37,961 bases of DNA, from assembly GCA_949296785.1 (NCBI GenBank), contig CASFRQ010000178.1, positions 1 to 37,961 of the forward strand. The letters are read 5' to 3'. The notes beneath the pieces were generated by a model. The model saw only the letters and a list, made by a program, of their open reading frames with translations. It was not told the origin of the DNA and did no database searches. The position numbers were made by a program, and so were the translations under genes. Below, one piece after another: positions 9,810 through 16,091 of this stretch (the stretch's first letter is position 1; each line of letters opens with the position of its first letter). This DNA is from an uncultured Alphaproteobacteria bacterium (GTDB taxonomy: Bacteria; Pseudomonadota; Alphaproteobacteria; CASFRQ01; SAAU01).

Positions 9810-10889
9810 CTACCTGATTTTCAAAGTCGCCAGCCCCAAAAACGCCAGCAAGATGGAAATAATCCAAAACCTGATGACAATCGTTGTTTCCGGCCAACCT
9901 TTCTTTTCAAAATGGTGATGTATCGGAGACATTAAAAAGACTCTTTTACCGAAAAGCCTCAAAGAAGCCACCTGTACCATGACGGAAACCGCCTCCAGAA
10001 CGAACAATCCTCCGACAACCGCCAAGACGATTTCGTTTTTTGTAATCACGCTGATAATTCCCAAAGAGCCGCCCAAAAACAAAGAACCCGTGTCTCCCAT
10101 AAAAATCTGAGCCGGCGGCGCGTTAAACCATAAAAATCCCAGACAGGCACCAATAACAGCTCCGCAAAAAACGGCAATTTCCCCGGAACCGGAAACAGCG
10201 TAAATCTGCAAGTACTTCGCCAGTTCGGCATGTCCTGCCAAGTAGGCGATAATCAAAAAAACAACCGCCACCATGATAATCGGAAATGTTACCAATCCGT
10301 CCAACCCGTCCGTCAAATTCACGGCGTTGGAAGCCCCGGCAATAACAAGTGTTCCGAACACATAGTAAAAAATACCCAAATCCAAAGTGAAATTTTTAAA
10401 GAACGGGAAAGCCAAATGCGTCGCCTTTCCGGAAGAGTCCAATCGCACAATAAAATAAAGAGCCGACAAACTGACAACCCCCTGGCAAAATAATTTTAAT
10501 CGTCCGGGCATACCTTTATAATCCTGCTGCGTCACCTTGGCATAATCGTCTAAAAAACCGGTAAGTCCAAAGCCCAAAGAACTTAAAAGTAAAATGATGA
10601 TATACGGATTTTCCAAATCTGCCCACAAAAGGAGACTGACAATCATGCATAAAAGAATAAGAACCCCTCCCATTGTCGGCGTCCCTTTTTTAGCCTCGTG
10701 ATGCAAACACGAACGGATAGGCTGCCCTTTTCCTTGCAGACGCTTCATCCAGTTGATAAATACCGGCGCGCACAGAAAAAAAAGGAGAAAAGCAGTTGCC
10801 AGAGCCCCTCCCGTCCTAAAAGTAATATACCTAAAAAGATTTAAAATCTTAAAATCTTCCGCCAAAGGATACAATAAAGAATAAAACAT
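9810..10889 (-). CDS. mraY: Phospho-N-acetylmuramoyl-pentapeptide transferase MraY
   Basis: 359 aa. Contains NAVNLTDGLDGL, FMGDTGSLFLGG and MSPIHHHFE. GAGGA SD upstream. Confidence 0.96.
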   Translation of the reverse strand: MFYSLLYPLAEDFKILNLFRYITFRTGGALATAFLLFFLCAPVFINWMKRLQGKGQPIRSCLHHEAKKGTPTMGGVLILLCMIVSLLLWADLENPYIIILLLSSLGFGLTGFLDDYAKVTQQDYKGMPGRLKLFCQGVVSLSALYFIVRLDSSGKATHLAFPFFKNFTLDLGIFYYVFGTLVIAGASNAVNLTDGLDGLVTFPIIMVAVVFLIIAYLAGHAELAKYLQIYAVSGSGEIAVFCGAVIGACLGFLWFNAPPAQIFMGDTGSLFLGGSLGIISVITKNEIVLAVVGGLFVLEAVSVMVQVASLRLFGKRVFLMSPIHHHFEKKGWPETTIVIRFWIISILLAFLGLATLKIR

Positions 10890-10909: not shown

Positions 10910-13900
10910 TTAAATGGGTTCATCCTGCTGCAAACGATAAAAAATATCCTCCAAAACAGGCTGTTGAAATCCTTTTATAAAGAGCAAATCATTTTCTTCA
11001 AGTTCTTTTTTTAAAATGGATATTGTTTTTTCGTCTCTTTCTTCCCAAAAACCTTTCCGATCTTCTTCCAGTCGGTCATAAACCACCCTCAACCCGCGGC
11101 CAACGCAAAACACTTTATCAAAAATGCCCGAATCCAGCAGAGAAAGAAAAGACAAGTGTAACTCCTCGCTCTTTTTTCCCAAATCAGGGACTTCCTTTAA
11201 CAAAAGCAAGCGTCTGCCTCCAACGGTTTTCTCATAAGCGCATCCCTCCAAATATCCTCTAAGCGATGACAAAGAATACACCGACAAACCGGCTGCCACT
11301 GTTACTTTCTTGCCGCCGACAGACAAATCCTGCCGTATCTCCTTTACTTTTGGGAAGGAGTAATCGGAAAGCGCCGCCAAAGCATCCTCCATGGAAAAGT
11401 TCAACGCCTGCGCCGCCGCCAAAGCCGCCAAAGCATCTAATGCCCAAATTCTTCCGCCTCTTTTTAAAGAAAGCTCCGCCTCTTTTCCCGACAAGGAAAC
11501 ACGTGCCGAATATCCGGATTTATTGTGCTTTTCGTCATTTTCCTCCTTGTACGCGAAAGAAACGTCCGCTGCCGCAGATATCGCCGATTTTTCGGCAGAT
11601 TCCGAAAAGTCGGTGTTTTCCTGTCCCGAAGTTTCCGCATCAACGAAAACTTCCGAACGAACAGGCATTTCTGAAGATTCAAAATTTTCCGGATTTTTTC
11701 CGGCTTCCGGCGTCTCCTTGCCTGCAAGCGCCTCTGCCGGATTTTCCTTTTTCTCAGAAATGCCCTGAGGCTCTTCAAAAGAAAGCAGACGAAAATCCGC
11801 CCTAGGATGTTCACCGAAAGAAACAAAACGGTAAACCCCCATCAGAGAAATCGTTTTTACAAAATATTCATAGAAAGGGTCATCTCTGTTCAAAACGATC
11901 GTTCCGCCCGGCTTGACACCGCTGACAGCCTCGCTTAAAATTCTGGCAATAGCTTCTTCCGATTCATAAATATTCAGTTTATAGGAGCCGGTATTTAAAA
12001 TCAAAGCGACTTCTGGCTGAATAAAACAGGACAGAGACCTCATCTCCTCCGCCCCCGTCAATGGCATTTCCAACAGGGAATAATTCGTCGGCGCCTGTAT
12101 TTGCGCGACGGAACGCATCACGGAAACAAACGATAAAACCCGGTCGGCCGAAGAATAAACGCTTCCGCCCGATCTTAAAATTTGCGCCAACATACTTTTC
12201 ACACTCGTTTTTCCGGCAACTCCGGATAAAGTGACGAACGCCGACTGAGTCAATGTCCGCGCATAGGAAGCCAGCTGTTCCAACGCCGTTTCGGGATCGT
12301 TGACGATAAACAGTTTTGTGCTGTCCTTCTGGGCTGTTGGGATTTTCCGTACCACACAGGCGGCTGCGCCGTTCTGAAACGCCTGTTCCAAAAAATCATG
12401 CCCGTCTTTAAAACCACCCTTCAACGCGAAAAACAAATCACCCGTTTTGACAGTCCGACTGTCTACGGATAAGCCGTAAACCTTAAAATCCTCCCCGTAA
12501 ACGCCCCCTAAAATCTCTTTCAGTTCCCGTCCGGAATATAAAGGTTTTTTTTCCAAAGCCAACAACGCCGTCTGAGCTTCTATCCTGTCGTTAAATGGTA
12601 AAGTTTTGCCGTTGACAATCTGGCCTTCCTCATGGCCTTTGCCGGCAATAATCAGAACATCGTCTTTTTCAAGTTCCTCTATAGCCTGAGCAATCGCCTT
12701 GCGTCGGTCTCCGATTTCCCGACCCAGCTGGCAAGCCGCCAATATTTCCTGACGAATGGTTTTGGCATCTTCAAAACGCGGATTATCGTCGGTAATAATA
12801 ATTTTATCCGCCAGTCTTTGAGCGATTTTTCCCATTAAAGGCCTTTTGGTTTTATCCCGATTGCCGCCGCAGCCGAAAACAACCCACAGCTTTCTGCGCG
12901 TCAAAGGACGCATTGTTTTTAAAACATTTTCCAAAGCGTCGGGTGTATGAGCGTAATCCACATAAACCTTCGCGCCATTTTTCTTTTGCCCGACAAATTC
13001 CAGACGCCCCGGCGGGCTTTTTAGGCGACTGACGGCTTTTAAAGCCCTCTCAGGTTCCAACCCGGAACCGATAACCAACCCCAACGCACATAAAAGGTTC
13101 ATTATCTGAAAATCGCCGCTGACAGGAAAATCCACGGTATGTTCCTTACCCAAAACTTTTAAAGTCAAGCGGTAACCGACATTCAGTCTCTCTTCTTTCT
13201 CCAACAGGATATCCTCTCCGTGACGGCCATAGGATAAAACCCTCAGTCCCTTATTTAAACAAATGTTCTTAAGTTTTTCATATTCCGCGATATCGGCATT
13301 CAAAACGGCAGTTCCGTCCGGCTTAATATGTTCTTCAAAAAGCTTTGCTTTTGCCGCGAAGTAGCTTTCCATTGTTTTATGATAGTCCAGATGCTCTTCC
13401 GTCAGATTGGTAAACGCCGCCGCATCAAACATCATACCGTCCAGCCTTCCCTGGTCCAGTCCGGCGCTGGAAGCCTCCAAAGCCGCATGCGTCACTCCGG
13501 CTGAAGCCAATTCCTCCAAATCACGGTAAATCTCAACGCTTTCCGGCGTTGTTAAAGAAGTTTCTTTTTTTATTTTATCCGAAAAGACGCCGATAGTTCC
13601 GAAACTGGCCCCTTCAATGCCACTTTCTTTCCAAATCTGACGTTCAAAGTACACGGTGGAAGTTTTGCCGTTTGTTCCCGTTACCGCCGTCAAAACGGAC
13701 GGTATATCCTTATAAAACAAAGAAGCGGCCCGCGCCATCGCGGCACGAATACCGCCTTCGGCTTTAATCACCGGAACCGGCAAACCGTCAATCCATTCCG
13801 GGCTCAAAACAGCAATCGCCCCGTTTTGAACCGCCTGCCGGCTGTAAGTCTCTCCTTTATCCTTATCCGACGATAAATTGACAAACAAAAAACCCGGCTC

Positions 13901-13993
13901 AACCTGTCTTGAATCGGCGGTAATGCCTTTCACATCAACCCAGGAAATTTCCCTGTCGGCTTGCAGCCCTTTGACAAGATTTTCCAGAAGCAT
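10910..13993 (-). CDS. murE/murF: Single-ORF fusion of MurE (UDP-MurNAc-L-Ala-D-Glu--meso-DAP ligase, about aa 1-482) with a divergent MurF-like Mur ligase domain (about aa 483-1027)
   Basis: MurE half: TGTNGKTS, FTNLTEEHLDYH, AAKAKLF, VDYAHTPDAL, FGCGGNRDKTKRP, TDDNPRFE (DNPR, DAP-type) and AGKGHE. MurF-like half: VDSRTVKTGDLFFALKGGFKDGHDF and the P-loop LSGVAGKTSVK, but many MurF motifs are altered and there is an acidic insert of about 87 aa. There is no stop between the halves. AAAGGAG SD lies before ATG 13993. Confidence 0.9.
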   Translation of the reverse strand: MLLENLVKGLQADREISWVDVKGITADSRQVEPGFLFVNLSSDKDKGETYSRQAVQNGAIAVLSPEWIDGLPVPVIKAEGGIRAAMARAASLFYKDIPSVLTAVTGTNGKTSTVYFERQIWKESGIEGASFGTIGVFSDKIKKETSLTTPESVEIYRDLEELASAGVTHAALEASSAGLDQGRLDGMMFDAAAFTNLTEEHLDYHKTMESYFAAKAKLFEEHIKPDGTAVLNADIAEYEKLKNICLNKGLRVLSYGRHGEDILLEKEERLNVGYRLTLKVLGKEHTVDFPVSGDFQIMNLLCALGLVIGSGLEPERALKAVSRLKSPPGRLEFVGQKKNGAKVYVDYAHTPDALENVLKTMRPLTRRKLWVVFGCGGNRDKTKRPLMGKIAQRLADKIIITDDNPRFEDAKTIRQEILAACQLGREIGDRRKAIAQAIEELEKDDVLIIAGKGHEEGQIVNGKTLPFNDRIEAQTALLALEKKPLYSGRELKEILGGVYGEDFKVYGLSVDSRTVKTGDLFFALKGGFKDGHDFLEQAFQNGAAACVVRKIPTAQKDSTKLFIVNDPETALEQLASYARTLTQSAFVTLSGVAGKTSVKSMLAQILRSGGSVYSSADRVLSFVSVMRSVAQIQAPTNYSLLEMPLTGAEEMRSLSCFIQPEVALILNTGSYKLNIYESEEAIARILSEAVSGVKPGGTIVLNRDDPFYEYFVKTISLMGVYRFVSFGEHPRADFRLLSFEEPQGISEKKENPAEALAGKETPEAGKNPENFESSEMPVRSEVFVDAETSGQENTDFSESAEKSAISAAADVSFAYKEENDEKHNKSGYSARVSLSGKEAELSLKRGGRIWALDALAALAAAQALNFSMEDALAALSDYSFPKVKEIRQDLSVGGKKVTVAAGLSVYSLSSLRGYLEGCAYEKTVGGRRLLLLKEVPDLGKKSEELHLSFLSLLDSGIFDKVFCVGRGLRVVYDRLEEDRKGFWEERDEKTISILKKELEENDLLFIKGFQQPVLEDIFYRLQQDEPI

Positions 13994-14013: not shown

Positions 14014-15744
14014 TTATTTCCGTTTAGATAAGCTTAACTTGTAAGAAGCCTGGATATACGGCGGCTGTTCCTCTTCCGGCCTAGGTGCTACCCCCAGATA
14101 CGGCGCGATTTTCTCAATTATTTTTCCGGCGCACGGAACGACATTCCATCCTGCCGTGTTAAAACCGAAAGTCTCTTTCATCTTTTTCGGATTTTCCATC
14201 ATGACAATCAAAGCGTACCTTGGTTTGTCCATCGGAAAAGCTGCAATAAACGAAGTCCTTAAAGACCCTTTGATATACCTTCCGCGTTCATCCTGCATTT
14301 CGGCGGACCCTGTTTTGCCGCCGACAAGATACCCTTTCACATTGGCGTTTTTTCCCGACCCGATATCCACCACCGCCCGCATCATATGCCGCATAATCCG
14401 GGAAGTCTTTTCAGATAAAACCTGCATCTGCGGACGATCATCGTTTCCATGCAGCAAAAGCGTCGGCGGACGGTAATATCCTCCGTTGACTAAAGCGCTC
14501 AAAGCCGTCAAAACATGCAAAGGCGACGACGCCAACCCGTACCCATAGGAAATGGTCACCGTGTTAATATCCCTCCATACGGACGGATACTTCGGCCGCG
14601 CCTTCTCCGGCAATTCAAAAACCAAAGGCGACAAAAAACCCAATTTTCCCATAAATTCCTTTTGTTTTTCTCCACCGGCCATCAACGCTATTTTAGAAGA
14701 GCCGATATTGGAAGAATGAATCAACACCTCCGCCACCGTCAAAGGCCTGTTCTGTCCTCTGTAGTCCGAAATAGGATAATTGGCCAGCTTATACGGTTTT
14801 GTCGCGTCAATCATATCGTCCGGCTTAACCTTCCCGCTTTCCAATCCCAAAGCCACGGCAAATACCTTCATAATGGAACCGGCCTCATAAATTCCCAGCG
14901 CCGCACGGTTGAACAAGGCATTTGACAGAGTTTCCCGTCCCTGGTTCGGGTCATAATCCGGCAAAGACACCATGGACAAAACTTCCTGTGTGTTGACATC
15001 CATCACAATCGCCGCGGCGCCGGCCGTTTCAAATTTTGCGGCATATTCCATCAAAACGGAACGAACCAATTCCTGAACATTTGCATCTACGGACAATCTT
15101 AAAGGGGAAGAAGAGGTAGAGAGCTGTTCATCAAAAGTCTTCTCCACACCGGAAACGCCGACATCGTCAATATTCGTCAATCCCAAAACATGGGAAAACA
15201 AAGCGCCCTGCGGATAAATCCTCTGCGTGCGCGTTTCAAAATCCAAAAACGGAATGCCCAGACGGTTGACGGCGTTCTGTTCCTGCGGCGTCAGATTTCT
15301 TTTCAAATACTTAAAACTGGATTTTGAGGCTATTTTCCTATATGTTTCCTGATAATCCAAATCCGGCAAAACCTTCACGAGGCGACGGGTAATTTCCTTC
15401 GGATTTTCCACTTTTCTGGCATCTATGTATAAATCCACGATCGGCAGGCTGATCGCCAAAACCGTCCCGTTTCTGTCCACAATATCCGCCCTGACGGATG
15501 AAGGAGGGGGCAAACGCCGGGCTTCAGGTTGCGTCCTTTGCAAAATAGTCAGCTGGAACAAACGCCCGAACATCACCGTAAACGCCGCCAAAAAGCAAAA
15601 AATAATAAAAGCAATCCGTCCCTGCCCGATTTTTAGAGCCTGCACCGTTTTATTGTCTAAAGCCGTATAGCGGTCGCGCGCCCGAATGGGAATTTCTTCC
15701 CCGGGCGCATAAAATGTCTCTTTTGAAGAAAATAAAGAGCTCAT
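14014..15744 (-). CDS. ftsI: Division-specific class B penicillin-binding protein FtsI (PBP3-type D,D-transpeptidase)
   Basis: Contains the SxxK (AGSIMK), SxN (HSSNIG) and KTG (GGKTGSAE) motifs and an N-terminal TM anchor. I prefer ATG 15744, which forms an ATGA overlap with the ftsL stop, over the track start at 15765. Confidence 0.92.
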   Translation of the reverse strand: MSSLFSSKETFYAPGEEIPIRARDRYTALDNKTVQALKIGQGRIAFIIFCFLAAFTVMFGRLFQLTILQRTQPEARRLPPPSSVRADIVDRNGTVLAISLPIVDLYIDARKVENPKEITRRLVKVLPDLDYQETYRKIASKSSFKYLKRNLTPQEQNAVNRLGIPFLDFETRTQRIYPQGALFSHVLGLTNIDDVGVSGVEKTFDEQLSTSSSPLRLSVDANVQELVRSVLMEYAAKFETAGAAAIVMDVNTQEVLSMVSLPDYDPNQGRETLSNALFNRAALGIYEAGSIMKVFAVALGLESGKVKPDDMIDATKPYKLANYPISDYRGQNRPLTVAEVLIHSSNIGSSKIALMAGGEKQKEFMGKLGFLSPLVFELPEKARPKYPSVWRDINTVTISYGYGLASSPLHVLTALSALVNGGYYRPPTLLLHGNDDRPQMQVLSEKTSRIMRHMMRAVVDIGSGKNANVKGYLVGGKTGSAEMQDERGRYIKGSLRTSFIAAFPMDKPRYALIVMMENPKKMKETFGFNTAGWNVVPCAGKIIEKIAPYLGVAPRPEEEQPPYIQASYKLSLSKRK

Positions 15745-16091
15745 GGACGGCGCTCCTTTTTCCAACTTTCTTTTCTTTTATAGGAAACGAAAGAAATTGG
15801 CGTTTGCGTGCTTTTCGGCAATTCCTTTAAAGATAAAATCTGCCCCGTTTTCATTGGTTTAAGATGCGTTACCTGTTCATTGAGTTTTTTCAGCCTCTCC
15901 GGCGCCGTTAAATAGCTCCATTCCGCCTTTAAAACATGTATCGCCTGTTTTTGTTTTTGAATGTCGCTTTGAATTGACGCGAGTTCTTCTTCCTGCCGGA
16001 TAACTTCGTATTTCAGAACAAACATCCCCACTCCGCTCAATAAAGCAAAGCAGAAGCAGAAAATATAAAAAGTGAAGAAGCTGACTTTCAT
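15741..16091 (-). CDS. ftsL: Cell division protein FtsL-like (TM segment plus coiled coil)
   Basis: 116 aa with an N-terminal TM segment followed by a heptad-like region (EEELASIQSDIQKQKQAIHVLKAEWSYL). Positioned between rsmH and ftsI, with 4-nt overlaps at both ends. Confidence 0.8.
   Translation of the reverse strand: MKVSFFTFYIFCFCFALLSGVGMFVLKYEVIRQEEELASIQSDIQKQKQAIHVLKAEWSYLTAPERLKKLNEQVTHLKPMKTGQILSLKELPKSTQTPISFVSYKRKESWKKERRP

Follow-up and report, generated by a model that had tools for sequence, protein, structure and literature searches.

The 37,961 nt stretch analysed here (contig CASFRQ010000178.1 of assembly GCA_949296785.1, from an uncultured alphaproteobacterium), referred to as the window, carries a murE–murF fusion gene on its minus strand at 10910..13993, in the interval between ftsI and mraY. 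The gene is a single open frame of 1027 aa plus stop, in which a MurE ligase (residues 1–482) runs on into a half derived from MurF (residues 483–1027, designated MurF'). MurF is essential and a target for antibiotics, and is assumed to be soluble. The MurF' half is probably a pseudo-ligase, retained for a non-catalytic role after MurF had been displaced by a membrane-anchored paralogue. The genome containing the window (G000) is a metagenome-type assembly of 234 contigs and is 80 % complete. It was compared with that of the sister species (G001, 94 % complete), the sole other species of the genus, and with a genome of a sister genus in the same family (G002, 100 % complete).

Catalytic residues, fold and selection in the MurF-derived half

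When scanned alone, residues 483–1027 scored 204 bits against the MurF model TIGR01143, below its cut-off of 288.6 bits, and 218 bits against the MurF equivalog NF010693 (cut-off 544); the 304 bits obtained with TIGR01143 for the whole fusion were inflated by cross-matches to MurE. Pfam Mur_ligase_M gave a partial match (positions 3–156 of 200, 66 bits), and Mur_ligase_C gave no match in the half. The bifunctional MurE/MurF model NF008896 aligned with the fusion in one stretch (residues 15–1022 on model positions 18–957), in the order MurE then MurF, with 663.5 bits against a cut-off of 1023. The half nevertheless derives from MurF. Its origin as a second, duplicated MurE was considered and rejected, since MurF models and structures win clearly and MurE models match the N-terminal domain only (about 80 bits). 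Its parts, all on the minus strand, are as follows.

12239..12547, minus: N-terminal domain of MurF', aa 483–585; the best conserved part of the half
11768..12238, minus: central domain of MurF', part 1, aa 586–742; P-loop and E642 kept, NN(H)xG loop, H672 and K686 lost
12203-12226, minus: P-loop SGVAGKTS, aa 590–597; kept
11516..11767, minus: acidic low-complexity insert, aa 743–826; no counterpart in canonical MurF
11354..11515, minus: central domain of MurF', part 2, aa 827–880; β-hairpin and helix, PGxHxxxN replaced by GGRIWALD
10913..11353, minus: C-terminal domain of MurF', aa 881–1027; TIGR01143 positions 211–415, 46.9 bits

Conserved positions were assessed in two alignments. The first comprised nine canonical and five membrane-anchored MurFs from the same class, in which 40 columns were conserved with at most one exception among the 14 sequences; the half retains 20 of these. 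The second comprised 68 diverse canonical MurF representatives, drawn from 1.84 billion proteins that had been searched exhaustively. Of its 87 columns with a conservation of at least 85 %, the half retains 47; by domain the counts are 16 of 18 (N-terminal), 20 of 42 (central) and 11 of 27 (C-terminal). Among the positions kept are G591, G594, K595, T596 and K599 of the P-loop and the Mg-binding E642. The replacements in the central domain are N620L, N621S and G624S in the NN(H)xG loop, G644P, H672K, K686L (the AKAE lysine) and H849I/N853D. At or in the C-terminal domain they are R884K, D901A, Y904S and N905V (DxSYNAN), G933K and E937D (GDMxELG) and S1009F (KGS), the motifs DDSYNAN, GDMLELG and KGS reading AAGLSVY, KEVPDLG and KGF, respectively. 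The original prediction, made from the sequence by eye, had described an erosion of the MurF motifs that spared the P-loop and the following Glu. Its motif register was reproduced by phmmer against the MurFs of Escherichia coli (1gg4) and Pseudomonas aeruginosa (4cvk), and the profile scores and both alignments bear the erosion out. All Mur ligases reportedly share an invariant His that binds Mg, a Lys in AKAE, an Arg that binds ATP and the Asp and Asn of DxSYNAN, and the loss of these would therefore have hit the shared ATP/Mg chemistry and not just the D-Ala-D-Ala pocket.

AlphaFold2 (AF2) models of the half alone [predicted local distance difference test (pLDDT) 84.8, predicted template modelling score (pTM) 0.83] and of the full 1027 aa protein (pLDDT 85.0, pTM 0.76) predict a complete three-domain MurF fold, including the C-terminal domain that Pfam did not detect, for which pLDDT was mostly 80–96. 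The best PDB matches of the half in Foldseek were MurF structures (4qf5, TMt 0.82; 4cvm, E 4e-34). There is no linker at the junction between MurE and MurF', which was modelled confidently and as continuous in the full-length protein. A word-indexed homologue search with the MurF' half returned the query alone, and in the exhaustive search the closest match was a 193 aa fragment at 71 % identity, all others being at or below about 40 % and mostly at 25–33 %.

The insert lies in the β-hairpin region of the central domain. Its residues 744–826 (83 aa) have pLDDT values of 26–52 and are predicted to be disordered, with a net charge of −13 and 24 % D+E. It is nearly invariant within the species, and only 32 codons could be aligned with the sister species, at 28 % identity; it is a fast-evolving, putatively disordered loop. 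The insert, also reported in the original prediction, is real: it was absent from every canonical MurF aligned, and comparison across assemblies revealed no artefact. Tandem repeats were looked for in it and none were found, and an origin by tandem repetition was rejected on this basis.

Proteins at 90 % identity or above were found in 10 independent assemblies, eight of them exactly 1027 aa in length, and the sister species possesses the same fusion, with the same junction and the same degenerate motifs. The MurF' half was free of stops and frameshifts in all 10 assemblies and in the sister species. A break in the reading frame of the latter was considered as a sign of pseudogenization and rejected, as it corresponds to a 10-N scaffold gap inside the insert. 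Ratios of non-synonymous to synonymous substitution rates (dN/dS) were estimated by the Nei–Gojobori method between the two species (G000 versus G001).

MurE: 0.057
MurF' N-terminal domain: 0.022
MurF' central domain: 0.105
MurF' C-terminal part: 0.10
FtsI: 0.072
MraY: 0.090

The C-terminal part, at 71 % identity between the two species, was less conserved than the rest. The MurF' half evolves like an essential protein, under purifying selection, and only the insert is free of it.

The membrane-anchored MurF and its distribution in the class

A whole-genome search with TIGR01143 revealed no canonical murF in the 80 % complete assembly of the window's genome. The original prediction had proposed looking for such a second gene, and a membrane-anchored MurF was found in its place. 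This protein, encoded at C173:597-2156, was the best TIGR01143 match; apart from the fusion, the genome has no other MurF-like gene. The protein comprises 519 aa, of which about 160 form predicted transmembrane helices (hydrophobic segments within aa 4–149) and are followed by Mur_ligase_M (PF08245, 107.6 bits) and Mur_ligase_C (PF02875, 42 bits); the transmembrane domain stands where the UDP-binding N-terminal domain would be. All 40 of the columns shared with canonical MurF are kept, and its motifs include GSYGKTS, E228, H258, K272, H350/N354, R385, DDAYNSNP and PGMVELG. Four N-terminal transmembrane helices have been described for the MurF of Helicobacter pylori (Blair et al., 2018, as cited in PMC9448923).

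The gene lies behind that of an α/β hydrolase. An operon encoding Ddl, the α/β hydrolase and the membrane MurF is complete in the sister species (G001:C71, with a Ddl of 404 aa) and in the sister genus (G002:C47), and in the window's genome it is interrupted where contigs C115 and C173 end. Neither G001 nor G002 has a Ddl besides that of this module, and the single Ddl of the window's genome, on C115, likewise belongs to it. A scan for the module of Ddl, hydrolase and membrane MurF recovered at least 594 loci, including some in cultured Labrys and Blastochloris. MurF activity must exist in the organism of the window because the presence of FtsI implies that a pentapeptide precursor is made. 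As there is no other candidate whose chemistry is intact, the membrane MurF is the likely MurF enzyme, and judging from its residues it is this protein that most likely adds D-Ala-D-Ala.

The distribution of the two forms was compared in 401 evenly sampled genomes of the class, with canonical MurF defined by a TIGR01143 score no lower than the cut-off.

Membrane MurF present (25 genomes, 16 GTDB families): canonical MurF in two (G146 and G152), none in 23
Membrane MurF absent (376 genomes): canonical MurF in 338, none in 38

The two forms were anticorrelated (Fisher's exact test, p = 6e-19, uncorrected for phylogeny). In family f16 one genus had the membrane form only and two genera the canonical form only, whilst in family f145 one genome had both forms and another the membrane form only. 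Such mixed states within families are the pattern expected if a paralogue was gained and the old enzyme then lost. The two genomes with both MurF types (G146, on contigs C9 and C19, and G152, on C1) are candidate transitional states.

MurE proteins of 760–803 aa ending in a MurF N-terminal domain and a dead central domain were found in three further families (G056 in f55, G109 in f108, and G025, G204 and G334 in f24). These stumps lack the P-loop (reading, for example, ITSKDKEDKT or FFENSISEQ) and the C-terminal domain, and retain 16–23 of 28 canonical N-terminal domain columns. In genus g25 the stumps had dN/dS values of about 0.17–0.18, compared with 0.044 for MurE; constraint on them is relaxed but still present. 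The fusions formed three separate, well-supported clades in a MurE tree whose deep nodes were not resolved, a result compatible with one shared origin as well as with several.

Interpretation, alternatives and relation to known systems

The proposed course of events begins with an ancestral MurE–MurF chimera joined without a linker. Once the membrane MurF module had taken over, the fused MurF half would have been free to lose its chemistry, and catalysis would have been lost from it. It could not be discarded, however, as it would still serve MurE in a non-catalytic way, most likely by stabilizing MurE's C-terminal domain, which packs on the MurF N-terminal domain in such chimeras, and/or by docking the chimera to other Mur proteins. 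Decay would then have occurred only where chemistry, and not structure, was at stake. The suggestion that MurF' was retained for MurE folding or docking to the Mur complex draws on the Bordetella pertussis chimera, where a hydrophobic patch on MurF's N-terminal domain is capped by the C-terminal end of MurE (Shirakawa et al., 2023; PMC10214165). Constructs of that chimera that lacked intermediate domains did not yield stable protein on purification; MurC and MurD bind to its central domains, and MurG binds to the chimera (PMC10214165).

Several points weigh against this reading. The P-loop and E642 are conserved in the genus, so that nucleotide binding and a residual or altered activity are possible. 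The input alignment for AF2 was made of canonical MurFs, and the fold was therefore partly imposed. The dN/dS values are rough, since dS between the two species is about 1–2 and near saturation. A canonical murF may lie on the missing 20 % of the window's genome, although the 94 and 100 % complete genomes of the sister species and the sister genus are also without one. In the sister genus, as in most other genomes that encode a membrane MurF, MurE stands alone and bears no MurF stump, which argues that MurF' is not generally required. Rigid superposition of the full-length model on the Bordetella structure 8f5d also failed [template modelling (TM) score 0.37/0.48, root mean square deviation 18.9]. 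No claim is made for a Bordetella-like interface between MurE and MurF, as the domain order matches but the superposition is poor.

An alternative, which we regard as unlikely, is a split MurF whose two polypeptides are both needed: the N-terminal domain of MurF' would bind the UDP-MurNAc-tripeptide made by MurE and hand it over to the membrane MurF. This would fit the strong preservation of that domain (16 of 18 columns, dN/dS 0.022) and its survival in four GTDB families, with 16–23 of 28 columns kept in the stumps, and it is exactly this domain that is replaced by transmembrane helices in the membrane MurF. On the other hand, G002, G313, G017, G022, G081, G364 and G068 combine a membrane MurF with a stand-alone MurE, no MurF N-terminal domain was detected anywhere in the G002 genome, and in genus g25 the domain has evolved faster than MurE (49 versus 81 % identity). 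If true, a split enzyme would channel the product of MurE to a catalytic module bound to the membrane beside MraY, and would represent an evolutionary intermediate in which the soluble and membrane stages of precursor synthesis are becoming physically coupled.

The purifying selection on MurF' makes it improbable that the half is a functionless relic that is dying and has not yet been deleted. Its eroded catalytic motifs, the lower identity of its C-terminal part (71 %), its freely evolving insert and the absence of the C-domain or of the whole half from other lineages would all suit a relic, but dN/dS values of 0.02–0.10 are those of the essential neighbouring genes, the frame is intact in 10 assemblies and in the sister species (where the only break is the run of 10 N), and the model folds with high confidence. 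Of the two readings put forward in the original prediction, a non-catalytic domain agrees with the replaced residues and with the purifying selection, whereas a changed specificity is very unlikely. In the latter case the half would use ATP to add a different residue to the stem, or to act on another acceptor, for which it still has the P-loop, K599 and E642 (conserved in both species of the genus) and an entire three-domain fold. Against this, the half lacks the His that acts as second Mg ligand, the Lys of AKAE, the Arg that binds ATP and both the Asp and the Asn of DxSYNAN, all of them replaced, and because these serve the ATP/Mg chemistry common to all Mur ligases, it is the general Mur chemistry that appears to be lost; related stumps are without even the P-loop. 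It is hardly credible that the fusion is an artefact of a chimeric contig, or of a stop codon or frameshift overlooked at the murE–murF boundary: the assembly is fragmented into 234 contigs of metagenome type and P0124, a member of the protein cluster, seems chimeric in its N-terminal region, yet the same 1027 aa frame was recovered in eight independent assemblies, the sister species has the same junction, and the junction is continuous and confidently predicted in the model.

MurE–MurF chimeras, membrane MurF, non-catalytic MurF' domains and non-catalytic Mur folds have each been described already. The original prediction had rightly pointed to MurE–MurF fusions elsewhere, as in Bordetella, and these correspond to NF008896/PRK11929 and PDB 8F5D. 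The Bordetella chimera shares with the present protein its domain order, a head-to-tail junction without a linker and the dcw position between ftsI and mraY, and 8f5d was the best PDB match of the full-length model (E 5e-60). Both of its halves are active, whereas here the MurF half has lost catalytic residues and gained an 83 aa disordered insert. Canonical MurF (EC 6.3.2.10; 1GG4, 4CVM, 4QF5) has in common with MurF' the three-domain fold, the N-terminal domain signature, the P-loop and the Mg-binding Glu; MurF' differs in scoring below the family cut-off and in the replacement of the H, K, R, D and N residues and of the NN(H)xG loop. The MurF of H. pylori resembles the protein encoded at C173:597-2156 in architecture (an N-terminal transmembrane part followed by MurF), and no MurE-linked MurF stump has been described there. 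In the MurF'–Alr protein of Phocaeicola dorei (Mutaguchi et al., 2026; PMC13726279) a MurF-like domain likewise sits on an enzyme of peptidoglycan precursor synthesis as a non-ligase modulator, but the partner is alanine racemase, the MurF' domain is N-terminal and a separate MurF is present in P. dorei-type organisms. Plant PAP11 of the plastid RNA polymerase (8r6s, 8w9z), which was among the fold matches, also employs a Mur ligase fold as a non-ligase structural subunit; being MurE-derived, eukaryotic and part of an unrelated complex, it offers an analogy only.

A literature search found no paper on a conserved dead MurF half on MurE in combination with a membrane MurF that has displaced the canonical enzyme. 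Among certain Alphaproteobacteria from gut and environmental sources, canonical MurF would have been displaced by a membrane paralogue with its own Ddl and hydrolase. Being fused to MurE, the displaced MurF would persist as a selected pseudo-enzyme domain, with lineages at different stages of decay. They could serve as a natural series for the non-catalytic input of the MurF module to chimeras, whether in stability, docking to the Mur complex or substrate hand-off. A caution for annotation also follows, as family models call such proteins MurE/MurF-like although the MurF half is, going by its residues, almost certainly inactive.

The MurE half and the gene neighbourhood

The remaining features of the fusion and its two flanking genes are the following.

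12548..13993, minus: MurE module, aa 1–482; NF001124 640 bits (cut-off 476)
13457-13477, minus: EASSAGL, aa 173–179 of MurE, adjoining the Mg-binding Glu
14014-15765, minus: ftsI, on one flank of murE–murF'
9810-10889, minus: mraY, on the other flank

Residues 1–482 scored 513 bits against TIGR01085, and the MurE part of the model superposes on solved MurE structures with a TM score of about 0.85. An intact MurE running without interruption into a MurF-shaped domain, as originally proposed, thus agrees with the NF001124 score and with the single 1027 aa frame. The accompanying change from SSH to SSA is present, and what had been listed as a departure from the MurE motifs can now be described as a trait of the genus. 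All eight of the other MurE sequences compared read EASSHGL, whereas EASSAGL is common to the sister species and to nine of the 10 assemblies of the protein cluster, the tenth (P0124) looking chimeric at this point. In the sequences compared, EASSAGL therefore presents itself as a substitution fixed at the level of the genus. The first ~190 residues of P0124, a cluster member of 980 aa, belong to a different MurE (MEVSSHAVVLERIGG) and are followed by the sequence found in the window, so that it probably represents a chimeric metagenome contig.

The dcw cluster of the window, on the minus strand, consists of mraZ, rsmH, ftsI, murE–murF', mraY, ftsW, murG, murC, murB, ftsQ, ftsA and ftsZ. Neither murD nor ddl was present in it, including the segment 4469-9809. 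By motifs only, the MurD of this genome was assigned to contig C24, and a MurC/Mpl-like ligase with the motif IEADESDG to contig C105.

In the sister genus the MurE between ftsI and mraY (G002:C40:43300-46200, locus L069, minus strand; ORF at about 663–2027 of the reverse complement) is about 455 aa long. It begins about 45 residues before the P-loop, so that the N-terminal UDP-MurNAc-binding domain seems to be absent, and it ends in a K/S-rich tail and not in a MurF' half. The MurE proteins of G081 and G068 align only from residues 81–93 onwards. The record CAVDQP010000071.1 of the sister species (L037) is titled 'Holdemanella biformis ... cleanbin'; this is a Firmicutes name, while the genes are those of an alphaproteobacterium-like organism with a small genome, and the label looks wrong.

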